This document shows positions 15,703-32,554 of a stretch of 64,000 bases of DNA, piece by piece (position 1 is the stretch's first letter; each line of letters begins with the position of its first letter). The notes under the pieces were generated by a model. It saw nothing but the letters and a program-made list of their open reading frames with translations. It ran no database searches and was not told the DNA's origin. The position numbers were made by a program, and so were the translations under genes. Source of the DNA: Nitrospirota bacterium (GTDB lineage Bacteria; Nitrospirota; UBA9217); assembly GCA_963749655.1 (NCBI GenBank), contig CAVVOB010000022.1:128001-192000 (forward strand). Reading direction: 5' to 3'.

Positions 15703-15737
15703 GCCCGTCTGCGGTCAAACTGCAGGCGGGCTTTTTT
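15703..15737 (+). terminator. Rho-independent terminator after acs
   Basis: gcccgtctgcgg / ctgcaggcgggc stem followed by T6. Confidence 0.85.
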
Positions 15738-15745
15738 ATTGCCGA

Positions 15746-15967
15746 TGCGCTTTTGATTCTTCAACTCAAAACTAAAAGTTCGCAACTCGTAACTGCTTGT
15801 CGTATTTCCGCATTTTTTTAACCTTTTGCATTGGGAAACCATATACCCTAAAAATACCCCATCGAAGTCCTTGCGTAATTCATCCAGGTATAGTACTGTT
15901 TTCCCCGGGAGGCCCATCCCGGCGCGGTTAGATGTTTTTCAACTCCTCCCACGCGAGACCGCTTGAC
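15746..15967 (+). repeat. Repeated promoter/leader module, copy 1
   Basis: cttcaactcaaaactaaaa..ctcgtaactg..gtatttccgcatt arm, TTGCGT-17-TACTGT promoter, gggagg..gcggttag..cctcccacgc..gaccgcttgac leader; homologous to blocks at 16831, 17438, 18121 and 23451. Confidence 0.85.
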
Positions 15968-16173
15968 CTGATTTCTTCATCAAGATGCTTAGCCTCTGGC
16001 TTTTATTTCTCCCAGCGGGGAGAGGAAGACGTCATACGCTTTCCTGTCGACCAATGCGCAGATTTGACGGGAAGGAGGTGAGTATCGCAAAATCGCAATT
16101 TAATTGGGACTGCTTGAGGGCCATAATGGCGCACGTTTTCAAATAAACTTGACCGTTAAAAGGAGAACTGAAG

Positions 16174-16686
16174 ATGAAAAAAGTGTTTATGATTTCTTGC
16201 ATGCTTTTATTTGCTTCCTTTACGCAGTTTGCAAATGCCGGGACAGCATTTATTCCTGCTTATAACGTATCTGCGGATTTGATACGGACTGATATATGGG
16301 TAAGCAACATTTCTAATAGCGTTCAGACCGTTACCATTACTTTGTACAACCAAAATGGAAGTCCTTTGGTAAGCCAGCCTTATTGCTACAGAATTAGCGG
16401 CAGCGATTTCGTGACATCGGCCACGGATTCAAATGGTCAAATGGTTTTCAGTTTACCCGCTTCGAATTCAGTCGGGATATCACTTTTACCGTCAAGTGAC
16501 GGGGCGGTGCATGACGGATATGGAAAGATTACCGGGACAAGTGACGGAACAGTGCATGACGGATTTCGGAAGATGCCGGCAAAACCCAACTTTGGTCTCG
16601 TAGCCCATGCATTTATGACGAATACACCTGCGTATAATACTCTTGTCCAGAACTCTATCAGCATAAATGGCGGTAACCCATTTTAA
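16174..16686 (+). CDS. Hypothetical secreted protein (AT-rich, beta-rich)
   Basis: AAGGAG RBS, signal peptide MKKVFMISCMLLFASFTQFANA; ends INGGNPF. Confidence 0.8.
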   Translation: MKKVFMISCMLLFASFTQFANAGTAFIPAYNVSADLIRTDIWVSNISNSVQTVTITLYNQNGSPLVSQPYCYRISGSDFVTSATDSNGQMVFSLPASNSVGISLLPSSDGAVHDGYGKITGTSDGTVHDGFRKMPAKPNFGLVAHAFMTNTPAYNTLVQNSISINGGNPF

Positions 16687-16830
16687 ATAGAGAAAAGCAG
16701 AGTGTACAAAAATTAAACTCCTGCAAAAAAGATAACGTTGTTATCGGCTGCGATTGTGTCGCGTTATCACAAATTTTTTTTCTCAGCTGTCTGCGCGCCC
16801 ATGACAACGTTATCTTCTCTCTTTGTTTCC

Positions 16831-16954
16831 CATTCCGCACTTTGAAAATCCGTTCTTGCCTAATTCGTCCAAGTATAGTAATGTTTTTCCCGGGAGGCCC
16901 TTCCCAGCGCGGTTAGTCCCTATCCCAATTTCCTCCCACGCATGACCGCTTGAC
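16831..16954 (+). repeat. Repeated promoter/leader module, copy 2
   Basis: TTGCCT(16856)-17-TAATGT(16879), then a leader closely similar to copy 1. Confidence 0.85.
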
Positions 16955-16978
16955 ACACCTTGTTGGCAAGGAGTCTAA

Positions 16979-17336
16979 ATGAAATATTTCAAAATGTATT
17001 TGATGGCCTCATCCATTGTGCTGCATGCAGCATTATAGGACTCCTGCTATGGGCAGCGCCATTTATTTCGAACGCGTCAAAAGTTGGTAAGCAATGGGCG
17101 CAAAGTAGCCAGAGCCCGCGTGAAAAAGGCATCGTTGCTGATGTTAGTGAAATTATTCGAGGCGAATATCGGTACAAAGGCTACCTGATAAAATATAATG
17201 ACCAGGACCTGTACGTTATGGTACAAGCAAAGATAATATTGAAAAAGGTGACCACGTGAATGTGATGATTCAAGAGCACCCTTATGCTTCAACAAAGTCG
17301 CTTATGGTTGTTGTTACGAAGTCAGAAATGAGATAA
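16979..17336 (+). CDS. Hypothetical membrane-anchored protein with two apparent frameshifts
   Basis: AGGAG RBS then ATG 16979; hydrophobic N-terminus; continues via ORF 16960-17259 and then SKDNIEKGDHVNVMIQEHPY...EMR-stop in another frame. Confidence 0.55.
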
Positions 17337-17348
17337 ACCTGCAGTTCC

Positions 17349-17433
17349 GCAGGTTGGGCTGAACGTTCTTCGTAAAGCCCAACGTTTTGACCGAGAATCT
17401 GTTGGGCAAGGTGAGCCTTTTTGCCCAACCTAC
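17349..17433. repeat. GTAG-type REP doublet (REPIN)
   Basis: Reverse complement of the right unit, gtaggttgggcaaaaaggctcaccttgcccaacag, is nearly identical to 28229-28263. Confidence 0.82.
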
Positions 17434-17437
17434 GCGA

Positions 17438-17568
17438 CTTCAACTCAAAACTAAAAACTCGCAACTCGTAACTGTTCTTAGTATTTCCGCATTTGGAAAG
17501 TTTCGCATTTAGAAAATGCGTCCTTGCCTAATTTGTCCAGGTATTGTAATGTTTTTCCCTAGATGTTA
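17438..17568 (+). repeat. Repeated promoter/leader module, copy 3 (leader mostly deleted)
   Basis: Same upstream arm plus TTGCCT(17524)-17-TAATGT(17547), then tttttccc|tagatgtt. Confidence 0.85.
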
Positions 17569-17680
17569 TGGTGCTCAAAAATGTTATATATATGTGATGG
17601 TTTCGTAAAAAGTCGGAAATCGGAAACGAAGAACCAGCTTAAAAATCAATTTTTTTACAGATTCGTTAGAATAAAAAAGT

Positions 17681-18076
17681 ATGAAATCATTAATATTGTT
17701 AATAATGGTTTTGAATTTATTTGCTTGTAATGCAATTGTGGAGGATAAAATGAGTGAAAAGCCATCCATTCAAGATGAGGATATTCAATTTGAAGGAAAT
17801 CAAAAGTCAAAAAATGGTGCAATAAAATTACTTAGTAAAGTTTTAAAGGAGCAAGGGGATTTGGGAGTGTATGGAAACTTAAGTAACGGAATGGAAGGTA
17901 TAAAGAAAGATATGAATATTAAAATAAAAGAAGAAGAAAATTATTATTCAATTGACATATATCCAAAGTCAACTTCAGGCGGGCATGATTTCGGATTTAC
18001 TATAGACAAAAAAACAGGAAAAAGATCCGATGTCGTGGTCGGGGAAATTTTACCTCCCCCGAAATTTGATAAATAA
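17681..18076 (+). CDS. Hypothetical lipoprotein, very AT-rich, gene-cassette-like
   Basis: Lipobox LFAC after a hydrophobic stretch; followed within 5 bp by an attC-like arm. Confidence 0.8.
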   Translation: MKSLILLIMVLNLFACNAIVEDKMSEKPSIQDEDIQFEGNQKSKNGAIKLLSKVLKEQGDLGVYGNLSNGMEGIKKDMNIKIKEEENYYSIDIYPKSTSGGHDFGFTIDKKTGKRSDVVVGEILPPPKFDK

Positions 18077-18080
18077 AAGC

Positions 18081-18112
18081 ATCTAACAACTCAATCCACC
18101 GGACGTAAGCGG
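18081..18112 (+). other. Putative truncated attC left arm
   Basis: ATCTAAC (RYYYAAC)-AACTCA-ATCCAC-CGGACG right after the stop codon; no matching right arm visible. Confidence 0.45.
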
Positions 18113-18120
18113 TCCCCTCG

Positions 18121-18187
18121 TGCGCTTTGATTCTTCAACTCAAAACTAAAAACTCACACTCGTAACTGTTCTTAGTATTTCCGCATT
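18121..18187 (+). repeat. Upstream arm of the repeated module, copy 4 (no promoter part)
   Basis: tgcgctttgattcttcaactcaaaactaaaaactcacactcgtaactgttcttagtatttccgcatt. Confidence 0.85.
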
Positions 18188-18236
18188 CCTCGTTTGAAAT
18201 TTTTTTTTCACTTATTGTCCGGAATTGTTCACGTCC

Positions 18237-20605
18237 TCATAGAGCAGATAGCGCGACCGCAGCGCGAGGAATCGTTCGAGAGACGCCTCCCAGAGGGACG
18301 ATACGGACTGCAGGTCCTTTGCCGCTCTTGAGTGCATCAATTACCTCCCGCGACCCTACAAGGTCAAGCGTTTTATCGATTTTGAAGGACCGGGGGTAGA
18401 GCCGGTAGAGCGCCTCCACAAGACCGAGGCCCAGGGATGCCGTGTCCAGGGACTGACGGTCTATAAGCGTGATCCGTACGCCGCGGCATACTTTGCTCTT
18501 GTATCTGTCGGCTCCGGGTGTGAACGTTATCGGCGCGAACGTTACTCCGGCAATTCCGCGGCTGTTCAGATAGCCCGCGAGTTTCCCGGCATTCACCCAG
18601 GGCGCACCGACGATCTCGAAAGGCGTGTCGGTCCCCCGGCCCACGCTTATATTCGCGCCCTCGATGAGGGCCACACCGGGATAGAGCGTCTCTTCGACAA
18701 GCGTGCGAAGGTTCGGCGACGGCGGCGTCCACTGCAGGCCTGTCTCGTCGTACCATGAAGAGCGGCGGTATCCCTGCATCGGGATGACATGAAGCTTCGC
18801 GCCTACTCCTCCCTCGACATTGAACATCCCGGCAAGCTCACCCACCGTCATCCCGTGCCGCACCGGCAGGGGGAAGTACCCGGTAAAGCTTTTCAGCTCT
18901 TCGTCCAGGAGCGGGCCCTGCACAACCGAGGCGTTGATGGGGTTGGGCCGGTCGAGGACGTAGAAATCCACTCCCTTTTTCGCGGCAGCCTCAATGGCGT
19001 ACCCCATGGTAGTGATGTAGGTGTAAAAGCGCGTTCCCGCGTCCTGCATGTCGAAAACCAGGGCGTCCAATCCTTCGAGCATCCGGTCCGTCGGTCGCAG
19101 TGTATCTCCATATAAACTGTACACAGGCAGACCAGTAACCGGTTCGGTAATGGATGCGACTTTGTCGTCTTCTCTTCCAGACAATCCGTGCTCGGGACTG
19201 AAAACGGCCAGGAGTTTCACTCCTGGCGCGGTATAGAGCAGGTCTATCGTACTTCGTCCCTGGGAATCAAGTCCCGTATGATTCGTGATGAGGCCGATCC
19301 TCTTGCCGGCAAGTTCCGAGAAAGCCTGCCCTTCAAGCACATCGATGCCGGTCCTTACCCCAGGGGGCGACTCCGCAGACACTGCGAGGGCGCCTGCAGC
19401 CACGTTTTCCGTTGACAGAGGATTAAGTGCATTCGACACGGCCTCTCTAATGCCGCGCGAAGTGTTTTCACGTCACCTTTGTCGTTCGGGTAGACCCTGT
19501 TGGTCAGAACAATGACATAGGTTTTCGTGAACGGGTCTATCCAGAGCGCTGTGCCGGTGTATCCGACATGGCCGTAAGCAGCTGTCCGCGATGTCTCGTT
19601 GTTGTCTGACAGGAAGGAAGGAACAAGGTCCCATCCCAGGCCGCGCGGAGTCTTGCGCAGAGGCGACTGGGGAGAGGTCATTTGCAGAACGGTTTCCGGC
19701 TTCAGGATCGATGCGTTGTTCAGCGTTCCCTGGTTCAGGAACGCCTGGGCAAAACGAGCAAGATCGTCTGCAGTGGAGAAAAGCCCGGCATGTCCCGAGA
19801 CTCCTCCCATGCGATAACAGGTGGGATCGTGGGGTTCGCCGCAGAACACCTTGTTGTACGCGAATCTGGTCGGGGCGGTGCGGTCCTTAAGACCGGGCAG
19901 GGGATGAAACCCCGTGTCCTTCATGCCCAGGGGCTTGAAGATGTTGGTCTCGCAATATTCATCCAGCGGCAGGCAGGAAACGCGGCGCACCAGTTCCCCC
20001 AGCGCTTCGAAATTGATGTCGCTGTACACATACGCCCTGCCCGGGGGAAAAACAGGCCGCTCGGAGAGTATCTTGTCCATCGCCGTTGTGTAGCCAGTCC
20101 AGGCGGGCCGCATCGACAGGTCGGGCTTGAGGCCTGAGTAGTGTGTCAGGAGCTGGCGGACGGTGATGGCATTTTTGCCGTTTGCTGCGAATGCCGGCCA
20201 GTAGCGGGAGACAGGGTCGTCTATGTTCACCTTCCCCTGTTCCGCAAGCTGCATCACGGCAACGGCTGTTGCAATCGGTTTGGTCAGAGACGCAAGATCG
20301 AAGACCGTGTCCTCGGTCATCGGCGCCTTTGTTGGAAGGAGGGAGCGAAACCCGAAGGCGCGCCGGTATACGATTGTTCCGCCCTGCCCGATCAGAACGA
20401 CGGCGCCGGGGGTCTTGCCGTCGCGTATCGCTTTGGCAACGATATTTGCAACGGGGGCCAGTCGTTGTTCCAGGGAAGGCACATCGGAGACAGCAGGTGA
20501 TGGAGAAGGGGAAGCTGGGGCTGAGACGAGGAGAACAAGCAGGAAAGCGGCGAACATCGGGGTCCGCGCGAGCAGCATATATGTCCGTGGCCGTTTCTTC
20601 AACAT
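18237..20605 (-). CDS. Serine hydrolase (beta-lactamase family) fused to a DUF1343/NamZ-like exo-beta-N-acetylmuramidase; frameshift near 19440
   Basis: FDLASLTK, YSDIN, GHVGYTG motifs in 19355-20605; ITNHTG, FSPEHG, DRPNP, PPSPN, SVGRGT motifs in 18237-19439. Confidence 0.85.
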
Positions 20606-20647
20606 TGGCTCAGCATGATTTCATAATAATCTGTACGCCGCCCTGTT

Positions 20648-20761
20648 CGTCATTCCTGCGAAGGCAGGAACCCAGGGGCTTATTTGTCATTCCGGCTTGT
20701 CCGGAATCCTTCTTTTTCAGTGATGTGCAGCGAGACGATTCCCGACGTAGCGGGAATGACG
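20648..20761. repeat. CGTC/GTCATTCC-type REP cluster
   Basis: cgtcattcctgcgaaggcaggaaccca, gtcattccggcttgtccggaatcc and inverted gattcccgacgtagcgggaatgacg. Confidence 0.8.
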
Positions 20762-20798
20762 ATTTATTACGAAACCATAAACAGTAGACGCCTTTGTG

Positions 20799-22358
20799 TC
20801 AGTTCAACCCCTGCGAGAGATATACGTCACTCGGCTTCCCGGGCAACAGGACTGTAGCTACTGAGTCCTTCGAGAAAGAGACCCGTGCCCGTTTCTCCGG
20901 AGTGGGGAATTCTTTTCTGCCGAAGGCATAGTCGCTGAATCCCTCCACCGGAGGCTCGAAGCGGACCGCGGCTGAGCCGGAGCGCTGCGTCTTCGCGGCC
21001 GCAGGGGGAACGATTTCGACGGGGTGCTCGACAGCGCTGGTATTTTCCCCTATCCCTGCTTTGCTCATGATAATCTCTCCGGGCGCACTTTTCAACCCCT
21101 CTGCCATATAGACATTCCTCGGGTTCCAGAGCATCCAGCCTCCGGCCCCGAAGGACTCTGCGGCATCGATCTGGGTCCTTATTTCCGGACCGAGGAAATA
21201 TCTTTTGTCGAAAGCATAGTCTTTGAATCCCTGCAGCCAGGGCCTGAACCGGACGGCTGGGATGCCGGTGCGCTGCCGCGCCCGCTCAAGCGAGCGGGCA
21301 ACGATTTCGTGGGAGTGCTCGACCGGGTTCGTGCATCCCGGTATCCCGAACTGGAAGCCCGAGGGATAGAGCATCAGGGCAAGATAGTCGACCGTGGCTG
21401 CCATGCTGTCAAGCCGCTGGCCGATCGCCGTATCATTGAGGTTCCAGGCGACATACCCGAAGACGTCGGCGGACAGAAATACATTGTAAGGGACCAGCCT
21501 TCTGTGTGCCTCGTCAAGGAAGCCGGAGATGGCGGCAACCCGATTCGGTTCCGTGTTCGCTACGCTGAAGGTCGGGCCTTTCTGGTCGGGAAAGCGCACA
21601 TAATCGAACTGGATCTCGTCAAAGCCGTTCCGTGCGGCCTCCTCGGCAATGGCGATGTTGTATTCCCAGACTTCCTGCTTCGACGGGTCCACCCAGATGA
21701 GGCCCTCGCGGTCGCGCCAGAGCTCCCCGCTCCTCGTCTTTATTGCCAGATCGGGGCGCGCCGCGCCGAGCACCGTGTCCTTGAACACCACGATCCGGGC
21801 AATGGTATAGATGCCCCGTTCCTTCAGCGATGCGAGCAGTCCCTTTATGTCCTTTACGATGACGAGCTTTTGCGCGCCGATCTCCGTTGCAAGAGGGATG
21901 TCGCTCTTGTACGTTATCACCCCGCGGTCTCCCTTCACATCGATCACCAGGGCGTTGAGCTCCGTCTCGGTGATCAGCCTGAGCGCGTTCCCCCGCAGGG
22001 ACCTGTCCGCTATGCCGTAGTTCGTGAGATAGAGCGCTTTTGGCAGGAAGGGTTTCAGCCGCACTTCGAGCGGCGTACGGGAAGATTCCGGGACAGGCAT
22101 CGTGGTTCTCCCGTACCCGTGGGCACGGAAACCTATCGAGTCCGCCTCTCCCTCGATTGCGAACATGCCGTTCTCATCGGTAAGGGTGATTTTGTTCCCC
22201 ACCGTTACCATCGCGGCCTTGATCGGTTTTCCTGTGTCGGCGTCCAGGACCGTGCCCCCGGCCTCTCCGTTCGCGGTCCTTCCCTTGGTTGCGTTGGCCA
22301 AGGAGAAAATGAACAGCACACAACAGGTCATCACCAATCTCGCTCTTTTTGTATTCAT
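20799..22358 (-). CDS. Putative glycoside hydrolase (DUF4015-like) with N-terminal carboxypeptidase-regulatory-like domain
   Basis: NALVIDVK, ARIVVFKD, GFDEIQFDYVRFP, MLYPS, RPWLQ motifs; own RBS and signal-like N-terminus at 22358, although in frame with the upstream gene. Confidence 0.78.
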   Translation of the reverse strand: MNTKRARLVMTCCVLFIFSLANATKGRTANGEAGGTVLDADTGKPIKAAMVTVGNKITLTDENGMFAIEGEADSIGFRAHGYGRTTMPVPESSRTPLEVRLKPFLPKALYLTNYGIADRSLRGNALRLITETELNALVIDVKGDRGVITYKSDIPLATEIGAQKLVIVKDIKGLLASLKERGIYTIARIVVFKDTVLGAARPDLAIKTRSGELWRDREGLIWVDPSKQEVWEYNIAIAEEAARNGFDEIQFDYVRFPDQKGPTFSVANTEPNRVAAISGFLDEAHRRLVPYNVFLSADVFGYVAWNLNDTAIGQRLDSMAATVDYLALMLYPSGFQFGIPGCTNPVEHSHEIVARSLERARQRTGIPAVRFRPWLQGFKDYAFDKRYFLGPEIRTQIDAAESFGAGGWMLWNPRNVYMAEGLKSAPGEIIMSKAGIGENTSAVEHPVEIVPPAAAKTQRSGSAAVRFEPPVEGFSDYAFGRKEFPTPEKRARVSFSKDSVATVLLPGKPSDVYLSQGLN

Positions 22359-23219
22359 CTTTCCCTCTCCTACCGTACACTGCCTGCAGAACTGCTTTAA
22401 CAAGCCCACGTGAACCTTTCCTGCATTTCCTTCGACGATCCTCTCGAAAGCCTTGCCGCTGACCGCGTTCGTGAGCAGATACCGCGGCAATTTCATGACC
22501 GAGTCGCCATCAGTTGTAGGGCGCGCCTCGATCGAGAACGTGGCGATGTAGCCTGCTTCCTTTGCTTTTTCCAGAAGCCTGTCGTTGTAGATGCCGAAGG
22601 GCCATGCAAGCATATCTACGCGCACGCCCAGTTCTTTCTCGAGTTTTGCTTTTGATTTTGTGAGCTGCAGGTCCACAGACTTTTCGTATTCCGATGGGGA
22701 CATCCGCTTTTCATCGTGCTTGAAATTGGGATGCCAGTAGGTGTGCCCCTGAAAATCGAACAACCCGGTCTTCTTCAGGTCCCTCAGCTGGTCCCAGGTC
22801 ATTGCATAGGAAGCGTTCGATATGGCCGAGGGATAGAGGAAAAGCGTCACCGGCACGTGGAATTCTTTGACGAGGGGAAGCATGTGCTGGTAGACCGATT
22901 CATGTCCGTCATCAACGACGATCACGACTGATTTGGGCAGGGGTTTGGGGCTCTTATTGAGATAATAATCGACGAGCTGTTTTAAGGGGATCACCTGATA
23001 GCCGTTCTCTTTGAGGTATTTGAGGTGAGATTCGAAAACAGCGGTCGTTACGGTCATACCATCGGCAACCACGGGGCCGAAACGATGATACAGAAGGATG
23101 GGGACGCTAAATGGGACGGGGTTTCCTGCAGTGTCAGCGCTTGCTATGCCTGAAAACGGAGAGAGGAGAAGAAAGAAGATAGCGGCCCGGAGGAGCAGCC
23201 GGTCAAAAAGTTTATTCAT
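22359..23219 (-). CDS. Polysaccharide deacetylase (CE4), exported; reads through into the next gene
   Basis: Signal peptide; PILLYH, VDDG, GHTYWH, AWPFG motifs. Confidence 0.82.
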
Positions 23220-23272
23220 ACCACTTCACCTAACCATGCTACATCAGTGGTGCCGTTATTCCCAGTGATTTT

Positions 23273-23315
23273 ATAGTACGTTTTCGCTGAGATAGGGGCT
23301 GTGAGCGGGGTCACA
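23273..23315 (-). promoter_or_regulatory. CRP/Fnr-family box with class II promoter geometry
   Basis: TGTGA-gcgggg-TCACA at 23300-23315; minus-strand -10 TACTAT at 23278-23273. Confidence 0.6.
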
Positions 23316-23450
23316 ATACAGTGTTAATATATAAGGAAGGAAACAACGGCAGATTTGCGACAGTTATGCTTTGGTTCAATCTGCAAGATTGAACCAGCGT
23401 GAGAAACAACGATAGCGGAACGACATAAACAAGGATGCACTCGCAGGACC

Positions 23451-23569
23451 CAACTCATAACTCATAACTAAAAACTCAAAACGTAGCTACGGCCTTTTCC
23501 GCATTTGGGGTATACCCCAAAAAACCCCATCAACCCTCTTGACACCGGGGGTAAGATACTATATATAAT
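23451..23569 (+). repeat. Diverged copy of the repeated module, with TTGACA promoter
   Basis: aactcataactcataactaaaaactcaaaac..ttttccgcatt..tataccccaaaaaaccccatc..cttgaca matches segments of 15762-15875. Confidence 0.65.
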
Positions 23570-23695
23570 TATACGAAAATGCGTAAATGAGTTGACGCTC
23601 CTGTCTTGCCCTGGGAGTAGCGCGCGATTGGCCGGGTGTGGTTGGATGGCAGGCGAATGACTGGGGAGGGATCACGTGCAAAGAGGTCTTGTACT

Positions 23696-24685
23696 ATGAC
23701 GGACAGTCTCTTCCTGGCTATGTGGAACGTTGAGAATCTGTTTGATGTCGAAGGTGCGAAACGGCCCAAGAAGATCAGGCGGATCATAGCCAAAGACATC
23801 GCAGGCTGGAATGAGCAGCTTTTGGACGCCAAACTTCGTCAGCTCTCGATAGTCATCCGCTCGATGAACTCCGGAGCCGGCCCGGATGTGCTGGGGGTGT
23901 GTGAAGTAGAGAACAGGAATGTTCTCAAAAAGCTGGCTGACAGAATTTCCCTGGACGGCGGCCGGACTTACAGCATCGCCCATGCCGATACAAGCGACAA
24001 CAGAGGTATTGACGTCGCGTTCCTTTATGATTCGGGAATCATGAAAACGTCCCACGACAAGATGTTCCAGCACTGGGTGGTCAAGCGATATGCGACGCGT
24101 GAGCTCTTTCAGGTGAATTTTACGATCGATGGCGGGACCCTCGTCCTGATTGGAAACCATTGGCCTTCGCGATCGGGAGGCCAGTACGAGTCTGAACCCT
24201 ACCGCATGACCGCTGGCGAGACGCTTTCGTACTGGATCGAGCGAATTCACGAGGAACTGGGGGAAGACGCGGCGATCGTCGTCCTGGGAGACTTCAACGA
24301 TGAGCCGTTCAACCGCGCCCTAACGGAATATGCCCTTTCAATAAACGACAGCCGCGTTGTGTTGAGCGGAACAAGCCACTATCTGCTGAACCTCATGTGG
24401 CCTCTTCTTGCGCAGGGGAAGGGCTCGCATCTTTTCGAAGGACGCTGGAACATGCTCGATCAGATCATGGTGAGCAGGGCCGTGGTCAACGGCAAGTGCG
24501 GTTGGACCGCACAAGACAGTCCGCGCATCGTGGGTGCAGAGCTCATGACGCATCCGACTTCACGGGGGCCCCATCGGTTTGGGATCAAGCCGATGGAGCG
24601 CGATATCTCGGGATTCAGTGACCACTATCCTGTCAGCATCACTTTGAAAAAAGAAAACAGGATCTTCAGGCTTTCCTATGGGTAG
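23696..24685 (+). CDS. Endonuclease/exonuclease/phosphatase family protein; C-terminus altered by IS insertion
   Basis: WNVENLFD, CEVEN, NHWPSR, LGDFND, SDHYPV motifs. Confidence 0.9.
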   Translation: MTDSLFLAMWNVENLFDVEGAKRPKKIRRIIAKDIAGWNEQLLDAKLRQLSIVIRSMNSGAGPDVLGVCEVENRNVLKKLADRISLDGGRTYSIAHADTSDNRGIDVAFLYDSGIMKTSHDKMFQHWVVKRYATRELFQVNFTIDGGTLVLIGNHWPSRSGGQYESEPYRMTAGETLSYWIERIHEELGEDAAIVVLGDFNDEPFNRALTEYALSINDSRVVLSGTSHYLLNLMWPLLAQGKGSHLFEGRWNMLDQIMVSRAVVNGKCGWTAQDSPRIVGAELMTHPTSRGPHRFGIKPMERDISGFSDHYPVSITLKKENRIFRLSYG

Positions 24686-26037
24686 CTAAGAAGATTAAAT
24701 ATGCATCGTAGGCCCATTTGAAGCTGCTTTTATAGCTTTAACGTTCTTTGATAACTTGACACGTTTAGATGCAAAGGGTATCGTCTTGCCTTATGAAGAA
24801 GACTACCCTTAGCACGCTTTATAGTTTTCCTGGTTTTCGCGCCCAGTCTCGGTTAAAGGATGATCCGGACGATCCCGGTGGCCGCATTATTGTCCTTCGA
24901 CGACGGCAAAAAAAACTACCTGTTCATGTGGCCGTAGTCAGCGAGGCTTCTACGATCGCATCATGCATCGGGTCAGGGACCTTGACTCCGGCGGCATTCG
25001 CATCCATCTCGAGTTTGAATATCGGCGCATGTTCTGCCGGAGGTGTCAAACTGTGAAGCGCGAGACCCTTGCCTGGCTGGCATCATCCAAGAGATTTACC
25101 GGACGATTCGAACAGGCCATCGGGCGTCAGTGTCGTGAGATGTCTATATCCCGAGTGGCTGAAATGAACCGTTTGAGCTGGGACCAGGTCCAACGCATCG
25201 AGAAAAACTACATGCGCGATCTGCTGGCGAAGCACCCGCCGTCCAAGGACCTTCGCGTGATCGGCATCGACGAAGTCTCGATTCGGAAGGGCCATACCTA
25301 TGCGATCGTTGTAGCTGATCTGGATCAGCATCGCCCTATCTGGATTGGCGGCAACGGCCGCAAGGAAGAAGACTTGGACCTCTTCTTCAATGAAATCGGG
25401 CCGAATACGGCCAAGGGCATCAAACTGGCAGTCATGGATATGTGGAAGCCTTTCAGAAACGCTACCAAACACCACGCGCCGGACGCTCAACTCGTCTTCG
25501 ATAAGTTTCACGTACTCCAGCACCTGTCGTTTGCCTTGGATGAGGTCAGACGGAGCGAATATAAACGTGTCAATGACAAAGAACGACGGTTCATCAAGGG
25601 CCAGCGCTATACGCTGCTTTCAAACCGGGACAACCTGGATATGGATGGCAGACGGGCCTTGCAACTCTTACTCAAGGCCAATAGCCGCCTTCACAAGGCC
25701 TATCTACTCAAGGAATCCTTCGGGCAGCTGTGGTCATACAACAATCCAGCCTGGGCGCGAAAGTTCTTTGAGAACTGGAAAGCGCAGCTCCGATGGAGCC
25801 GCTTGGAACCGTTTCAAAAGTTTGCTGCAATGATCGAACGTCACTGGGATGGCATCGTCAGTTACTGTCATCCCGACAATAAGGTGTCCCTCGGATTCAT
25901 GGAGGGACTAAACAACAAGATCCGGGTGATTCAGCGTCGGGCTTATGGCATTAAAGATAAAGAGTATCTTCGATTGAAGGTACTGACTTCCTTTCTCCCA
26001 GATGCCAAAAGTGACCCACACTAAACCCGGAAGACCC
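24660..26037 (+). mobile_element. ISL3-family insertion sequence, 1378 bp, complete
   Basis: 23-bp imperfect TIRs (ggatcttcaggctttcctatggg / cccacactaaacccggaagaccc) and 8-bp target duplication agaaaaca at 24652-24659 and 26038-26045. Confidence 0.93.
24793..26024 (+). CDS. ISL3 transposase in two frames joined by a -1 shift at an A8 run (24908-24915)
   Basis: IGIDE, MDMW, FDKFH, EGLNNKIRVIQRRAYG motifs; the -1 frame supplies CSCG of the zinc finger. Confidence 0.9.
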
Positions 26038-26230
26038 AGAAAACATATCCTGAACGGAAGAACCCGAAAAGAAACGGGGTTCTTCCAAATTCATCCGTTA
26101 AACCGGCCCGCACAGCGGGTGTCGACATATTCGCTTCGCACAACCCGTGCGTCATACAGCAAGCCACATACGGCAGTAAGGCCGTCTCCAAATAACATAT
26201 CCAAATAACATACAGGAAGGAGATCATCAC

Positions 26231-27262
26231 ATGGGAACAAAGTCAAGTGTTCTCTTGGACTCGCCCGAAATCATGGAGGGGATAGGCCCTTTACGCTCTG
26301 CTGCATTGACGCAGGCAGGAATTACGACGATTGCAGCCATGATCGGAGCGGGCGTCGGTAAGGTCCGCAGCATCTGCCCTGACGCCGGCGAGAGTGAAGT
26401 CCGGCGCTGGTTGTGTGCAGCCGCGCTTCTGCGGATAAAAGGCATGACGCCCGCCCTGGCCGACGCGCTTGCACGGGCTCAGGTATGCTCGTCAGCGAGT
26501 GTTGCGGATGCAAAGCTCAAGGATCTGGAGGACGCGGTTAAGGCCGCCTATGCGGGAAGCCGTGCGGTGAAAATCCCGAGCATCTATGATCTGGCTGCTG
26601 TGCAGCAGGCAGCATGGAAGGTGTGCGAAAAGGGAATGATGGCGGGGAGGATACTGACCTCGACCGGCGCCCCCCTCGCGCAGGTTCGGGTGGACATCGG
26701 CAGTCAGGAGGCGCTTACGAATGACGCCGGATGGGTCGCCTTTGACGCGGTACCCGTCGGAAAGGTGAAATTGCAGATCTACCCGCAGGGCCGAAGCGTT
26801 GCCATGCAGCCGCCGCCCCTGGACGTCAGTCCGGACGGACTAGCGGGGCCCGTGGTCGTGCGGATCGCTTCGCTTGGCAAGCCCGAACAGTTCGCGAGGC
26901 GGGAGATTGACGGATACCCCGTCTTCATCACGAAGGCGTCGATCCTGCGAGCGGCATGGCGGGAAATCGGCGACCTGCCGGAGGGCGATCTTCTGCAGGT
27001 GCGCGACCTCGACAAGAACGGCGTGTTCCGGCTGCTTAGCCTCTACAAGGAACGGCAGGGCACGGTGATCACCGTGTTCCGGACAAAGGCGGGGGCCGCC
27101 GATCTTCCGGCCGGGACGAAGCCGGGCGACATTGTGACGGTTGCCGGGGGCCGTCTGCAGTCTACCAAACTGACGGTAGAAGGGGTGTCGGCAGTCAAGC
27201 GGGAGAAAACCGAGGCCTTAGGCCGGCGGACGAGCCGCCGGGTAGTGCGGTTAGCACTGTAA
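26231..27262 (+). CDS. DUF4332-like (tandem HhH) protein with a carboxypeptidase-regulatory-like domain
   Basis: EGIGP..L..AGI.T and W...A.LLRIKGM repeats; GRILTSTGAPLAQVRV..TNDAG beta-sandwich; RBS present. Confidence 0.65.
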   Translation: MGTKSSVLLDSPEIMEGIGPLRSAALTQAGITTIAAMIGAGVGKVRSICPDAGESEVRRWLCAAALLRIKGMTPALADALARAQVCSSASVADAKLKDLEDAVKAAYAGSRAVKIPSIYDLAAVQQAAWKVCEKGMMAGRILTSTGAPLAQVRVDIGSQEALTNDAGWVAFDAVPVGKVKLQIYPQGRSVAMQPPPLDVSPDGLAGPVVVRIASLGKPEQFARREIDGYPVFITKASILRAAWREIGDLPEGDLLQVRDLDKNGVFRLLSLYKERQGTVITVFRTKAGAADLPAGTKPGDIVTVAGGRLQSTKLTVEGVSAVKREKTEALGRRTSRRVVRLAL

Positions 27263-27282
27263 AACACAAGGAGGGATGACCT

Positions 27283-27867
27283 ATGCCGGACGATGGGGGA
27301 GCTACTTATCAATTTATACCAAGCGCTGATGCCTGCGATACTTGCGCAGGGCAGGCAGGAGAATATGATTTTCCTCCCGCGGTACCTGTTCACGATAACT
27401 GCAGGTGTCAGGTCGTGCAGAAAGGATTGGATTGCAAGGACGGAAGCGTTCGTTATGAAGTCCGAAATCTCGAAGTCTCGGAAGATTCATACACCATAGA
27501 AGATGTTTTTATAGGGGACTACACCAACCGAGGCGAAGAATCCCTCGCGGCGACCGTAGCGATAAAGTGCGAAATCGAACAAGAGTCGTTCGACGAGGGA
27601 GTTGAGGCGGAACTGAACTGGTCCCCCATGTGCGGTTCTGTTTCCGAATCGGTTGTGTTTCCGGCGAGATCCACAGGGGAAATCAGAGGAGAGATCGAAT
27701 ATCAACAGATCATGTGTATCGGCGAACTATGGAAAATCTGCGAAACACCTGATCCGGTCGCGGGCTTCAACTCCGAGGAGTGTTATGTAGGAGAGGTCGG
27801 CGGTATCGCAGTAGCGCGTACCGGTTTGAACGGCGCTTACGTGGTGGCGGAACCGCTGGGGGAATAA
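27283..27867 (+). CDS. Hypothetical acidic Cys-rich protein with MuF-like CxxC...PxHxNCRC motif
   Basis: GGAGG RBS; ACDTCAGQAGEYDFPPAVPVHDNCRC at the N-terminus. Confidence 0.7.
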   Translation: MPDDGGATYQFIPSADACDTCAGQAGEYDFPPAVPVHDNCRCQVVQKGLDCKDGSVRYEVRNLEVSEDSYTIEDVFIGDYTNRGEESLAATVAIKCEIEQESFDEGVEAELNWSPMCGSVSESVVFPARSTGEIRGEIEYQQIMCIGELWKICETPDPVAGFNSEECYVGEVGGIAVARTGLNGAYVVAEPLGE

Positions 27868-27972
27868 GATCAGGCACATGCCGGAGATTTCCGGAATACA
27901 CAGAGAAATCCACAACTGCGTTTTGTGAGCTGATGGATCGGAATCGAAAATCGTATCGGCATGGGAGACCAG

Positions 27973-28087
27973 GGGGATGTAGTGACCGAAGTGGAGCAAT
28001 GCGTGGGAGGAATTAATCAAGAATGCAATAGACTTAACTTAGTATCAGTATCCGAAGAAGTTAGTCCATTTAGGTCACTACGTCCCC
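27973..28087. repeat. GGGGAC-terminated palindromic element (MITE/REPIN-like), copy 1
   Basis: Imperfect TIR ggggatgtagtgaccgaagtgga / tccatttaggtcactacgtcccc; 34 bp identical to 29961-29994. Confidence 0.8.
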
Positions 28088-28228
28088 TGTGGCGCCCAGA
28101 ATCTTCGCAATTTTCAGGCGATTAACGATCCGAAGGAGGCTCTTATCCTTCTTGCCGAGGGCGACCAAGAGAAACACTATGACGCACTGACGGCGGAAGT
28201 TGAGAAGACATTACAGAGGGGCTAGCCG

Positions 28229-28304
28229 GTAGGTTGGGCAAAAGGCTTCACCTTGCCCAACAGAATTCAAAAGATGTTGGGCTGTGATGCGTAGGCCAAC
28301 CTAC
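28229..28304. repeat. GTAG-type REP doublet (REPIN)
   Basis: gtaggttgggc..gcccaac followed by inverted gttgggc..ccaacctac. Confidence 0.82.
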
Positions 28305-28319
28305 AGACTGGTTGTACAA

Positions 28320-28766
28320 ATGAAAATATACGTCGTTGACACTTGCTTGATTAATAAACTCGTCGATGGCTCTGTAGGCTCTGATGAATTGCCGAAGGAT
28401 GGACAGTTTGTCGCGTCACATATTCAACTTGACGAATTGAGCAAGACAAGAAACACGGAACGAAGGGAAAAACTCCTGAATAAGTTTAGCGAGCTTATTA
28501 GTGAAGTATTGCCGACGGAGTCATTTGTATTAGACATTTCGAGATTGGACGAAGCTCGTCTTGGCGATGGTGTCAGATATCATGCGATAAAAGAAGACCT
28601 TGATGCACGAAATAAGTCAAAGCCAAACAATACACATGATGCACTTATCGCTGAAGTTGCAATGAAAAATGGCTACACTCTGCTTACAACGGATTTTGAT
28701 CTTTACCAAACTGCATATAAGCAGGGTATCGGGGTAATGTACTGGACAACAACATCTCGCAAGTAA
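28320..28766 (+). CDS. PIN-domain protein (VapC-like fold), AT-rich
   Basis: YVVDTC, QLDEL, HDALIAE, LLTTD acidic motifs. Confidence 0.78.
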   Translation: MKIYVVDTCLINKLVDGSVGSDELPKDGQFVASHIQLDELSKTRNTERREKLLNKFSELISEVLPTESFVLDISRLDEARLGDGVRYHAIKEDLDARNKSKPNNTHDALIAEVAMKNGYTLLTTDFDLYQTAYKQGIGVMYWTTTSRK

Positions 28767-28786
28767 ACTACCATCAAAACAGCCGG

Positions 28787-28817
28787 GTAGGTCGGGTAGA
28801 GCGCAGCGAAACCCGAC
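28787..28817 (+). repeat. GTAG-type REP
   Basis: gtaggtcgggtagagcgcagcgaaacccgac. Confidence 0.85.
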
Positions 28818-28830
28818 GGAATCGCAATGA

Positions 28831-29236
28831 TTGACCAAGCCTTCGAGATATCATGCGATACAAACGATCAATTGCAAAAGGGCTTCATTCTTTCTCATCG
28901 TTGTAACGGATAAGCGAAGAAAATTTCTGTGTCATGATGCTAATGTCCGTCTTCTTCGCGAAGCTTTCCGGACGGTCAGGTCCCGTCACCCGTTTACCAT
29001 AGACGCTTTCGTGTTGTTGCCGGATCATCTGCACTGCATTTGGACTTTACCGGAGCAGGATAGTGATTTTCCCATGCGCTGGGTCAGATCAAGAGTCATC
29101 TCAGCAGATATTGCAGTGATGAGTTCAAGGGACAACGAACGGCAGTGTATCTCGCCAAGTCATTTGGCAGAAAAGATATTGGGAGCATCATATCTGGGAT
29201 GAGGCCGATTTGATCCATCATGTAGAGTACATTCAC
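28831..29236 (+). pseudogene. REP-associated tyrosine transposase (RAYT), degraded and truncated
   Basis: HPFTIDAFVLLPDHLHCIWTLP (HUH motif); shifted frame WQKRYWEHHI.DE.D..HHVEYIH stops before the usual NPVK. Confidence 0.85.
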
Positions 29237-29894
29237 ACCCGCATCACGAATACGATCGGAACACCGCGCTCAAGTTAAAATTTTACGTTGCACTGTGGAA
29301 TAATAATATGATACGGTAGCTGCCGGGAGTGGAGATATCCTCCCAGTCAAATTGTTCCTTTTTTCAGGGGATATGTTGTGATTACGGCCAGGGTTGCTCT
29401 ACAGATATCGGTTGATCCGCCTTTGATACGCATACCGGAGAATGTCATAGACCTGGTGCCGGACCGCGAGGCAAACACCTATGCTATGGCGGATAACGGG
29501 TTGCGGCAGGAAAAGCCTGAACACTATCGGATAAGCCTGATGAGAAGAGCTGATGCTGTCGTCGATAGAGTTACCATCAGCGGAACGTCTACGCCCGCAG
29601 GGGTTGCCCTGTTGCAGCCCGGTTATTTACCCCTCCTGCCGCTACCTTAAGGAAACGCTGTCGAACGTTATATGGCTATTCCAAACCAGCAGGGTTTTTG
29701 CGAATGAAAATCCGTGAGATTTGGACTGCACATGGTCCATTTGAGTTTAAAGAAGCCCGTAAAGAAATTGAGGACAGAAAAGATGAAGATCGTGACGGGG
29801 ATTTAAGCATTTTCGATGATACGATCCGTGTCATTCGGCAAGTTGCATCGGGTAATATTGAGAAACGCGACTTTGAATTTAACGGATAAATTTT

Positions 29895-29994
29895 GAGGAC
29901 GAAGTGACCGAAATGGAGAAATGGGCTGGAAGTAATGGGATAGGCTTGGAATCAGTATTTGAAGAAGTTAGTCCATTTAGGTCACTACGTCCCC
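29895..29994. repeat. GGGGAC-terminated palindromic element, copy 2
   Basis: gaggacgaagtgaccgaaatgga / tccatttaggtcactacgtcccc. Confidence 0.8.
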
Positions 29995-30043
29995 GTCCCC
30001 TGTTGTGCCCCAAATTTGTCACCGTGCTGAGAATAGTTATCTC

Positions 30044-31494
30044 TCAACGAAGAACTTCCACGTAGACTGGGTTTGTGTTGAGCGTGATCGTTGCGCTGTT
30101 GTTCTTTACCGGCAGCAACGTGACCGTGAAGGCCGTTGAATAGCTTTCGACGTTTGCCCCCGAGGATTGAAAAGGCACTGCCTCGGTTATCCTGAAACTT
30201 GTCCCTTGCAGGTCGGCAAGGATGGTCTGCTTCGTCATACCCGGCGTATAGCCGGGATCGCGCAGATAGTCCCACCATGCAGTGTACACGCTCCCTCCAT
30301 TCTTGGTAAACCGGTAGACGCGGACGTTGTCTGAATCCTGCTCGGCCCGGATGGTTTTCCAGTCGCAGTCTTTCAGCATCTCGGCCATCTTTTTGTAGGA
30401 ATAGTACGCAAGTTTCCTGTGAGAGTACCCATCGGCGTTTTCAGGATTGTTGACCAACCCGACATTATCGAAGTAGCCGTTCACAATGCCGCCTGCATCA
30501 TGCGACTCGTAGGCCTGCGCCCAGAAGATCTTCTCGACGCCCGCGGCCAGGGCATAGACATATCGTTTGATCACGGCAGCAGCGTGATAGGCCTCGGTAT
30601 GGGCCGTGTATCCTTCGGGGCTGTCGCTGTAATCGGACATTTCGGTGATGTAAAGGGGGACGGTTCCGTAGCCGATATTGTCGAGCCCGGTCCTGATGTC
30701 CGCAAGGAACGGCAGAAGGCCGTAGGTCCCGGACGGAAGGTTTATCACATCGTAATCGTCGTCTCCGGCGAACTGCCCTGACCAGTGCAGGTCGAAGACA
30801 TCGAAATACCGGTCTTCTGCACTGTCCCTGATTCTGTCCAGTTCGGCCAGCATCGGCTATGTAGAAACCGGCGAGTCCCGCAGGGGTAGCAACGCCTGCC
30901 ATGGCGACCTTCATGCCCGGAGCAGTCTGTTTAATGGCCTGATAGGAAAGCTTGAGCAGGAGGGCGTAATTCTCCGGTGTGTCCTGCCAGAACGCGGCGT
31001 TGTCTGCCTCGTTTTCGATCTGCACGACGTCTATCATTGGAGAACCGGGAGCATCTTCAGCGCCGTCGCCGTCATAGCGCTCGACCGCTCTCCTGAGGAA
31101 CTCGAGGTATCGGCCCATATCTTTCGGCAGGCCTCCGGAGCCCGGCTGTGTGCCTTCCAGCCTGTTTTGCGCTTTCACTCCGACGAACAGCTTGATCCCG
31201 GCGGCTGCTCCGGCGCCGATGACTTCGTCCGAAGCGGTCCAGTCATAGACGCCTCCTTGCTGTTTCGATTTGGTCCCAGATGAGGCTGCCGTAGGACGAT
31301 ATCCGAGCAGTTGTCGCGCCGGTCTCATGCATGATCCCGGCCTCGTCAACGACTTGATTCTCGAATCTCACCTCGTGTATGCCGAAGGGAGTGCTTGACG
31401 GAGAGGAGCTCGGTCCTGATACGACGTCGCAGGCTGCAAGAAACGATGCGCTCAGGACAGATACGGCAAAGAGGAACCATATTCCTTTTGACAT
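30044..31494 (-). CDS. Lipoprotein glycoside hydrolase (clan GH-A-like), split by frameshifts near 31265 and 30858
   Basis: Lipobox LAAC; WD.IE..G.YDW, VERYDGDG, QIENE, FDLH, YITE motifs across three ORFs. Confidence 0.72.
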
Positions 31495-31777
31495 TTGCTG
31501 AACCCCCGTTTGAGGAATTTCACCATCGGTGAGGCCGGAATAGTATACTACATCTGTCGTTGAGACACGACTTGTTGAACAAAGTTGAATAAGCGGGTGG
31601 AGGTAGCTTTACTGGTCCTCGTCTGCAGCCTGAACCGCCCGTTAAGCAATCTGCAAGATTGAACCAGCACAATATAACCGGCCGCACTCGTGAATTTACA
31701 GAACGGTATGTTCTCCTGTCCCTGAAGGAATCGCCCCATCCGCTTCTGCTATAATAATTACACAAAGGGGGTGCCCA

Positions 31778-32362
31778 GTGAAAAAGACCGCGTTCGTGCT
31801 GCTCCTCATGCTTCTTGCCGCTCCCGGCATTGCCGATGAAAAGCGCCACTCCGTTCCTCTCGACGACTCACCGTCCATCGGCCCAGCAACCGCTCCTGTC
31901 ACCATCATCGAATTCCTCGACTTCCAATGACCGCACTGCGTGGCGGCCGGTCCGACCGTCAGGAAGATCATGGACGTCTATAAAGGAAAAGTACGGCTCG
32001 TTATCAAGAACTATCCCTACATCTATCGCGATTACTCCCATGTCGCTGCAGAAGCGTCGCTCGATGCGCGCGACCAGGGCAAATACTGGGAAATGCACGA
32101 CCTCCTGCTGAAGCGGTCTCCCAAGCTCGACCGGACGAGCCTCATTGCCTACGCGAAGGAATTGGGCCTTGACGTAAAAAAATTCACCGAGTCTCTGGAC
32201 GGGAAAAAACACGCGTCAGAGATCGAGCGGGACAAGAAGCTGGCAACGGATATGGACCTTTACAACACGCCGACGTTCTTCATCAACGGAAGAAAGGTCG
32301 TCGGCGAGCGGCCCTTTTCGTATTTCAAGAAGATCCTTGATGAAGAGCTGATGAAAAAATAA
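31778..32362 (+). CDS. DsbA-like thioredoxin-fold selenoprotein (UxxC; UGA at 31928-31930), 194 aa
   Basis: GTG 31778, signal peptide, PSIGPATAPVTIIEFLDFQ-TGA-PHC in frame with ORF 31940-32362 (QGKYWEMHDLL, TPTFFING). Confidence 0.88.
31941..31961 (+). promoter_or_regulatory. Putative bacterial SECIS element
   Basis: Hairpin tggcggc-cggtccg-accgtca starting 10 nt after the UGA, with apical GGUC as in the E. coli fdhF-type SECIS. Confidence 0.7.
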
Positions 32363-32540
32363 TGCGGAACATTGAATGAGAATTCGGAATGCGGAATTAA
32401 CGTAAGCTGCAATGCGTAATTCACGATTTAAAGTGGATCGCCTACTACGTACTTTGCATTTCACAATCGAAATAATACATCTCCATAAATCTGTTGGCAG
32501 TAGTGCCTTTATTCCGCATTCTGAATCCATTCCGCATTTT
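32361..32540. repeat. AATGCGG/TTCCGCA heptamer palindromic element
   Basis: aatgcggaa..ttcggaatgcggaatt / attccgcattctgaa..ttccgcattt. Confidence 0.75.
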
Positions 32541-32554
32541 GAAAAGGAGGCATC

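Follow-up and report, generated by a model that had tools for sequence, protein, structure and literature searches.

Copies of a mosaic, promoter-like repeat precede unrelated accessory genes in a draft Nitrospirota genome

The Correia elements of Neisseria are short, dispersed noncoding repeats that can supply a promoter and whose position varies between related genomes; the portion of the published account used here (PMC2649163) describes them as bounded by inverted repeats, similar to miniature inverted-repeat transposable elements (MITEs), and present in ∼100 or more copies. Intergenic heptamer repeats of the type TAACTGA are abundant in Beggiatoaceae, Cyanobacteria, and Bacteroidetes, as stated in the excerpted text of MacGregor 2015 (PMC4679880). 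Integrons carry a recombination hairpin 3′ of each gene of an array, and their cassettes are mostly promoterless and served by a single promoter, Pc. Here we analyze a 64,000-nucleotide stretch of a draft Nitrospirota genome (assembly GCA_963749655.1, contig CAVVOB010000022.1, positions 128,001 to 192,000 of the forward strand; called the window, with its own numbering), in which related noncoding blocks recur in front of small genes behind acs. The window sits on contig C22 of this genome (G000, whose contigs are given C-numbers). Judged from the sequence of one draft genome, the finding appears to be a variant of dispersed promoter-bearing repeats, intergenic heptamer arrays, and regulon promoters, and the reading toward which we lean is that the blocks are paralogues, copies of a mosaic noncoding unit of ∼185 bp that was amplified in this lineage and may serve accessory genes as a ready-made front end for their expression. 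Compared with the Correia elements, as far as that account of them extends (PMC2649163), the unit has 8 copies, lacks terminal inverted repeats, always faces a gene, and combines an operator-like box with a conserved leader.

A preliminary description of this locus had proposed five homologous noncoding blocks in the window, and all five are found where it placed them, at a similarity above chance. A repeat search of the window recovered a promoter/leader family (D1) at 15867-15931, 16852-16916, and 17520-17584 and upstream families (D3, D4, D6, and D7) at 15752-15815, 17431-17494, 18126-18187, and 23459-23482, and blastn of each block against the whole genome gave E values of 1e-8 to 1e-19 between the window copies. 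The three conserved copies of TTGC(C/G)T-17-TA(A/C)TGT that had been reported are likewise present, with exactly 3 matches to TTGCST-N17-TAMTGT in the 64 kb (15871, 16856, and 17524) and 0 in 100 shuffles. The region from 15.7 to 18.1 kb has a GC content of 28-48%, versus 58-66% in its flanks and 56.4% genome-wide. A 151-nt contig from an independent public DNA run matches 16873-17023 exactly; the other coverage of that run falls on acs of other organisms.

The unit is a mosaic of ∼185 nt with four parts: a heptamer array, (AACTNNN)4-5, at the 5′ end; a direct-repeat box, ATACCC-N5-ATACCCC, just 5′ of the -35 hexamer, in the forms (CCTCCCCC or ATACCCT)AAAAATACCCCATCGAAG; a sigma-70-like promoter core, TTGCCTAATT-N8-TATAGTAATGT, which we read as TTGCCT-17-TAATGT; and a leader of ∼75 nt, GGGAGGCCCTTCC…GCGCGGTTAGAC…ACTCCTCCC…GCATGACCGCTTGACCTGAT, or in short form GGGAGGCCCTTC…CCTCCC…GCATGACCGCTTGA, in which the blocks GGGAGGCC, CCTCCC, and ATGACCGCTTGA are invariant or nearly so. 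Pairwise blastn of seven loci, each taken with ±3-5 kb, placed the borders of the unit at about -97 and +88 relative to the TATAGT anchor for almost all pairs, with 74-88% identity, and the flanks of the copies are unrelated except at C12 and C14, which share -184 to +88. No terminal inverted repeats appeared in the repeat search of the window or on inspection of the unit ends in the aligned copies, and the motif GATT(T)CTTC at both ends of the first window copy has no counterpart at the other copies as a consistent duplication.

Only the first window copy contains all four parts; this copy, the other blocks, the cargo genes, and the hairpins between them lie on the plus strand. Its block A1 (15746-15815; repeat search and blastn) carries the array AACTCAA AACTAAA AGTTCGC AACTCGT AACTG between the local flanks GCGCTTTTGATTCTTC … GTATTTCCGCATTT, and the array core is a member of a genome-wide family. 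The box ATACCCTAAAAATACCCCATCGAAG (15843-15867) consists of two direct half-sites 11 bp apart that end 3 nt before the -35 hexamer. It is followed by the putative promoter core TTGCGT-17-TACTGT (15871-15899), recognized by pattern match and by alignment with the other copies, and by the leader GGGAGGCCCATCC…GCGCGGTTAG…CTCCTCCC…GAGACCGCTTGACCTGAT (15900-15972), recognized by alignments and scoring 108.7 bits with a covariance model of promoter plus leader (R2) built from aligned genome copies. The second copy (16831-16959; core 16856-16884, leader 16885-16959; R2, 112.5 bits) has a degenerate upstream part without array and box, and the third (17438-17568; array with flank 17438-17494, core 17524-17552; repeat search, blastn, and alignment) is without box and leader. 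Block A4 (18121-18187; repeat families D4 and D6, blastn) is an array only, and together A1 and A4 are direct repeats that bracket the 2.4-kb cassette block. By blastn, A4 is 96% identical over 56 nt to block A3, of the third copy. On the right it matches A3 without differences, and on the left its flank is similar to A1. Upstream of promoters 2 and 3 lies a box-less variant private to the two (89.6% over 48 nt). This shared variant and the likeness of A4 to both A3 and A1 suggest that the three tandem copies arose at least partly through local duplication. The fifth module (23451-23568; sequence inspection), before a gene for an EEP-family nuclease/phosphatase, comprises an array, TTCCGCATTTGG, a box at 23511-23531, and the promoter-like sequence TTGACA (23539)-17-TATATA; it had been described as a diverged copy, and it has a canonical promoter and no leader.

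Genome-wide, R2 identified 8 copies (75-118 bits), two in the window and the others at C12:1148, C13:171713, C14:148508, C28:300177, C28:338167, and C35:91529, spread over six large contigs (94-341 kb); all 8 point into a same-strand downstream gene. The same model found no copy in the 14 genus genomes and, in 49 genomes from the rest of the family, 3 copies (39-52 bits); these three distant copies keep TTGC…TATAGTA…GGGAGGCCCUUC…CCUCCC…GCAUGACCGC ahead of different, unrelated genes. A metagenome scan for the promoter core returned four contigs, one with a complete unit (L049), one with box and promoter without a leader (L046), and two that are unrelated. L049 is syntenic with the locus at C28:300177 (C28_300k), including the same upstream gene, and its unit is 80% identical versus 69% for the flanking gene, which speaks for constraint on the unit. 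Given this constraint and the invariant blocks kept by the distant copies, the promoter-plus-leader core looks functional and is old, surviving as single diverged copies in three other genera and amplified to at least 8 in this lineage. The counterpart of the L046 locus in G000 holds other genes and no unit. The claim that a portable promoter module stands before foreign genes is borne out insofar as the same module fronts different atypical genes here and recurs before unrelated accessory genes at five other loci of the genome. The module is not one element: array and box are far more widespread than the unit and mostly occur without promoter or leader. A strict leader pattern, scanned against 185,579 species representatives from which the window genome's own records were possibly excluded, had 2 matches, both in coding-looking DNA without promoter context and judged to be chance. 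On C35, the DNA between two divergent unit copies (91600-93931) is 82% identical to its own reverse complement. This stretch at the contig end is either an assembly chimera or a response-regulator/kinase pair that was duplicated in inverted orientation and then diverged.

The genes downstream of the copies are diverse and mostly anonymous. Cargo gene 1 (16174-16686; 170 aa; translation and Pfam) has low GC, no Pfam family, a signal-peptide-like N terminus as judged by eye from the translation, and one homologue at 36% identity, and the protein atlas gives it unnamed clusters only. Cargo gene 3 (17681-18076; 131 aa; ∼30% GC; no Pfam family) has an N terminus that looks lipoprotein-like by eye in translation and 25 homologous clusters at 45-72% identity (23 at 52-72%), mostly unnamed metagenome proteins. 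Between them, cargo 2 (16979-17336), whose start codon with AAGGAG lies 25 nt behind the conserved block of the second copy, reads through only across three frames, implying two frameshifts; the view that a distinct low-GC gene for an exported protein follows each copy therefore applies to genes 1 and 3, and to the low GC, but not to the broken frame at 16979. The interval from cargo 1 to unit 2 contains an imperfect palindrome of 88 nt (16729-16816; repeat I6), which folds at -31.7 kcal/mol (z, -5.2), is unique in the genome, and is not matched by the attC model. A double hairpin, GTTGGGC…GCCCAAC twice (17340-17442; repeat I7; z, -3.5), has its second half in a small dispersed palindromic family with copies on C12 and at window 28229-28264. 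The genes behind the copies include, besides an ISL3 insertion, a STAND-like ATPase with a DUF4386 protein and a dehydrogenase, three orphans, an alpha/beta-hydrolase with an orphan, a 687-aa Big_2 lipoprotein, and two orphan lipoproteins. Behind the copies at C14, C22, and C28_338k the GC content is clearly low; behind those at C12 and C28_300k it is low in part. At most loci the next start codon lies 100-420 nt past the conserved block. PADLOC assigned 0 families among 11 cargo proteins and gave no sign of antiphage defense. In four relatives whose synteny is contiguous across the C28 locus, the flanks adjoin directly and a 2.5-kb segment that starts 215 nt before the unit is absent, and the C14 cargo had no match among 14 genus genomes. 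We also sought empty sites by way of the alpha/beta-hydrolase cargo, whose best genus matches, at 51-52% identity, are not orthologues.

The box upstream of the -35 hexamer extends well beyond the unit. The 10-mer AAAATACCCC occurs 43 times in the genome, versus 1 occurrence of the reversed control; a second TACCC half-site lies 11 bp upstream in 31 of these 43 sites, and 19 of them are followed by a TTGNNN-16/18-TANNNT pattern. The box also precedes TTGACA-type promoters in genomes of 5 other family genera and in 9 of 14 genus relatives. A 136-nt module query matched 14 of 40 relatives' genomes, in every case at the box end and never past query position 64, and a -35 hexamer of the TTGAC or TTGC type stands behind the box at most of the relatives' loci that were fetched. 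Since box, -35, and -10 keep the same register in the unit as they do in canonical TTGACA promoters elsewhere in the genome, we read the unit as a probable regulated sigma-70 promoter, predicted to start transcription a few bases upstream of GGGAGG. Direct repeats 11 bp apart beside a -35 hexamer are the expected target of a winged-helix response regulator or a class I activator, and the box most likely binds a transcription factor, which could place the units under common regulation. One candidate for this protein is the OmpR-type response regulator encoded divergently from the C35 copy (C35:91800-92495). It precedes protein-coding genes; a role as a mark of tRNA or stable-RNA promoters was considered and set aside, with a tRNA or tmRNA as the nearest same-strand downstream feature at 0 of the 43 sites. 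Two further promoter/leader families, at C28:134763, C33:63207, C16:138974, and C23:140175 (L057-L060), share the array and a CCTCCCCCAAAAATACCCCATCGA box with the unit and have different -10 regions and leaders; by eye, the C23:140175 copy precedes the apparent N terminus of a type I restriction R subunit.

The heptamer arrays are more numerous still. The genome has 103 arrays of at least 3 units, 97 of them outside crude gene calls, and a four-unit array pattern has 121 genome matches versus 3 for the reversed control and 0-24 in 14 genus relatives. Units such as AACTCAA, AACTAAA, and AACTCGN follow the general form AACT[C/A]A[A/G], and the arrays end in AACTG. Neighboring arrays are mostly outward-facing inverted pairs (21 "-+" versus 1 "+-"), and the paired arrays sit directly behind a stop codon and ahead of the next start, some inside operons (for example, C13:312315-312581 and window 23452-23482). 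A check for enrichment of open reading frame (ORF) starts just behind the arrays was uninformative, with 1673 of 5000 random positions scoring likewise. We take the short tandemly repeated repetitive (STRR) heptamers of cyanobacteria to be a related case. The closest description in print, in the parts of PMC4679880 considered here, is that of the TAACTGA repeats, which like the arrays are tandem heptamers with an AACT core, in sets of 2-6 units and ∼100-170 sets per genome, intergenic, often just 5′ of start codons, and patchy among relatives. The arrays differ from the repeats so described in their unit, which is AACT[C/A]A[A/G] with a terminal AACTG rather than TAACTGA, in often forming outward-facing inverted pairs, and in that the modules place the array upstream of a promoter rather than adjoining a start codon. 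The phylum differs as well: by its protein-atlas neighbors, the host probably belongs to Thermodesulfobacteriota.

The leader might function as part of the mRNA, as a DNA site bound by protein, or as a small RNA. Its invariant GGGAGG and CCUCCC motifs could pair, and when the structure is taken from the consensus, they do so in 94.8% of cells versus 52-65% when slid. The leader sequence GCGGTTAG presumably resembles the ops core GGCGGTAG. JUMPStart/ops leaders are read by RfaH-type NusG paralogues and are a conserved leader element common to unrelated horizontally acquired operons. A search for such a reader in this genome found one NusG paralogue only (C15:39610-39897), which sits in a polysaccharide-export (EPS) locus, with nothing to link it to the leaders.

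Several results weigh against the reading of the unit as an expression front end. A generic sigma-70 scan omits the window promoter sites because TAATGT fits only 3 of 6 positions of the -10 consensus, a weak -10. Neither the GGGAGG/CCTCCC helix nor the GCGGTT/GACCGC helix has a pair changed on both sides (0 two-sided changes), and deviations break pairs; an alternative 5′ hairpin of the leader has 1 such pair, no better than shuffles. This covariation test has low power, with 8 sequences and mostly invariant pairs. The leader folds no more stably than shuffled sequence (z, about +0.1 to +0.2). Rfam 15 returned three sub-threshold chance matches for the window from 13 to 26 kb at E values of ≤1 and 0 matches at nine other loci at the gathering threshold. 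The L049 copy reaches 82% identity to other G000 copies and 80% to its positional counterpart, so orthology, gene conversion, and constraint are not separable there. The genome is a draft (39 contigs; completeness, 86.6%; contamination, 5.8%), in which three copies are found less than 3 kb from a contig end, and the copy at C35:93.9 kb is inside a 2.3-kb quasi-palindrome at a contig end, a possible assembly artifact. The weight of the finding is accordingly moderate: it comes from sequence data for one draft genome, and so does the predicted promoter activity.

The window block is not an integron. Like integrons and clusters of attC sites lacking an integrase (CALIN), it consists of small, unrelated, atypical genes of unknown function in tandem, with repeated noncoding spacers, in an integron-proficient host; unlike them, it has no attC as judged by the host's own attC model. 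It further differs from a complete integron in having no intI or attI nearby, although a CALIN likewise has no intI, and where the integron has its hairpin 3′ of each gene and one Pc for the array, here a promoter-like repeat stands 5′ of each gene, giving each its own promoter-like core. We built a covariance model (R1) from 16 attC sites of this genome, which represents the attC type of this host only; with filters off it found no site in the 64-kb window, the best hit (E = 3.3) being a flank match only. An nhmmer search for attC on C22 found none, and the inter-cassette hairpins are without attC bulge architecture in folds inspected by eye. That no integrase is visible in the window, as first noted, holds for tyrosine recombinases, with 15 matches to PF00589 in the genome and 0 on C22. 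A real integron lies at C29:9153-31011 (L050, L052), with an intI of 318 bits (TIGR02249 cutoff, 265) that contains one in-frame TAA, and at least 10 canonical attC sites in an array of 40-45% GC at 13.6-31 kb, into which an ISL3 element is inserted (29458-30835). A second intI-like gene is split into two pieces on C38 (149610-150547), and no contig other than C29 and C38 has a TIGR02249 match. Solo attC sites were identified at C28:298660, C38:144324, C30:82152, C20:139914, C19:99218, and C13:139886. The first of these (C28:298660-298725; nhmmer E = 4e-15) is a bona fide attC that immediately follows the second gene at the C28_300k module locus, so integron cassettes can land in module-headed loci, at 1 of 8 loci only.

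In the front-end reading, the promoter-plus-leader core was amplified in this lineage, and each copy faces unrelated, mostly orphan, often low-GC genes that relatives lack. The unit would fire transcription of its cargo, the leader would act on the mRNA, and the copies would have spread by homologous or illegitimate recombination, perhaps aided by the arrays, rather than by a dedicated recombinase. There is a small chance of something more elaborate, a recombinase-independent "expression adaptor" in which operator box, promoter, and leader are copied and pasted before acquired promoterless genes, plugging them into one regulon, with the arrays as homology patches; the leader would contribute its Shine-Dalgarno (SD)-like GGGAGG and anti-SD-like CCUCCC, and integron logic, with one promoter per cassette, would run on general recombination. 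How foreign genes that arrive without a usable promoter are activated is only partly understood. If the unit is active, the lineage would have reused one promoter, operator, and leader before many unrelated acquisitions, and with a classical integron in the same host the two solutions could be compared directly. The 25-nt direct-repeat box conserved in several family genera, the conserved leader with its paired SD-like and anti-SD-like motifs, and the ∼100 arrays with an AACT core, apparently undescribed in this phylum as far as a limited literature search goes, are each testable objects.

Other explanations account for parts of these observations. That promoter and "leader" together form a multicopy small-RNA gene, next to which foreign DNA has settled as at an insertion hot spot or island border, would suit a conserved block that is short (∼75-85 nt), has its own promoter, ends sharply at its 3′ side, contains an invariant C-rich CCUCCC of the anti-SD type, and at most loci lies 100-420 nt from the next start codon; yet no terminator follows the conserved end, the AAGGAG-preceded start codon behind the second window copy is only 25 nt past the block, and there is no structural support, no Rfam family, and no integrase near any copy, which makes this unlikely. 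We consider it unlikely that the unit is a MITE-like nonautonomous element with an outward-facing promoter, mobilized by a transposase in trans. The sharp and reproducible boundaries (-97 to +88) of its 8 copies, their lineage-specific amplification (8 copies versus 0-1 elsewhere), their occurrence near contig ends, which is typical of repeats, the similar GATT(T)CTTC motifs at both ends of the first window copy, and the presence of transposases in the genome (6 ISL3 copies, including one 160 nt past the C13 copy) are all compatible with such an element. Against it, no terminal inverted repeats were seen, the end motif forms no consistent duplication in other copies, the modules missing from partial copies are not the same ones, other genera have conserved the core as a single copy, and all 8 copies face a same-strand gene, which is unexpected under random insertion.

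Very unlikely, in our view, is an origin as functionless debris, either remnants of segmental duplication or assembly artifacts of a metagenome-derived draft. The 5.8% contamination, the copy in the suspicious quasi-palindrome at a contig end, and the decay of cargo 2 would fit such an origin, but the copies lie on six large contigs, their motif blocks are invariant where their spacers vary, the core is conserved across four genera, the L049 unit exceeds its adjacent coding gene in identity (80% versus 69%), and the 151-nt contig of the independent run is exact across 16873-17023. The preliminary description had favored integron-like capture, with the module as a recombination landing pad for foreign cassettes that each carry their own promoter. 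Three different atypical genes in tandem behind modules, the bracketing A1/A4 direct repeats, cargo absent from relatives, a genome proficient in integron functions (intI on C29, intI pieces on C38), and the bona fide attC at C28_300k are what such capture might leave behind. We nevertheless hold it to be highly improbable, since the host's attC model found no site in the 64-kb window and nhmmer none on C22, the contig has no tyrosine recombinase, the unit ends show neither terminal inverted repeats nor clear target duplications, and the genuine integron sits elsewhere. The hairpins, of which the first is unique and the second half of the second is a dispersed repeat, lack attC bulges and are unmatched by the attC model, attC accompanies 1 of 8 module loci only, and mosaic copies with different missing parts fit a fixed recombination site poorly.

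The cassette block forms one edge of a larger insertion. The terminator-like hairpin of acs (15703-15731, plus strand; a 13-bp stem with a T run behind it) is the final segment that the genus relative L034 also has, with homology up to 15737. In most of 10 genus relatives, a dsbA-like gene and a cytochrome c peroxidase-like gene follow ∼0.5-1 kb behind acs, whereas in G000 these two genes are at 31785-33611, 16 kb further on; comparison of the locus behind acs, as had been proposed, thus shows DNA that is absent at the same position in all 10 relatives examined. Because of this displacement, we define 15740-31780, ∼16 kb from acs to the dsbA-like gene, as a genome-specific island, with the cassette block as its left edge. 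Beyond the cassette block, the island contains NamZ, beta-lactamase-fold, and DUF4015-deacetylase genes, the EEP gene, an ISL3 element (24650-26042) with its DDE transposase of ISL3 type (24963-26024), a PIN gene, and a weak Y1_Tnp-like (IS200-like) transposase fragment (28831-29202; 20.7 bits versus a cutoff of 23).

In the island block at 18237-23219, the NamZ-like gene shares 63% identity with a gene from a different family of the phylum and ∼40% with the copies in the genus, and the genome's own NamZ orthologue is at C30:307313. The island gene is therefore not the genus orthologue, and the cell wall gene block also looks acquired. At the right side, the dsbA-like thioredoxin-fold gene (31785-32362) has an in-frame TGA that opens a …FQ-TGA-PHC… motif, also found in relatives L029-L038, and it looks like a selenocysteine (U-x-x-C) redox protein. 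The adjacent cytochrome c peroxidase-like gene (32555-33611) lies in three pieces in different frames and is intact in relatives (∼354 aa); here it is either broken or misassembled. A perfect palindrome, GGTTCAATCTGCAAGATTGAACC, which resembles repetitive extragenic palindromic (REP) sequences, occurs at no fewer than 8 loci (at least 8), including C20:83186, C14:169427, C13:154439, and C23:73349/73468 as well as window 23373-23400 and 31647-31668, the last of these near the right border of the island.

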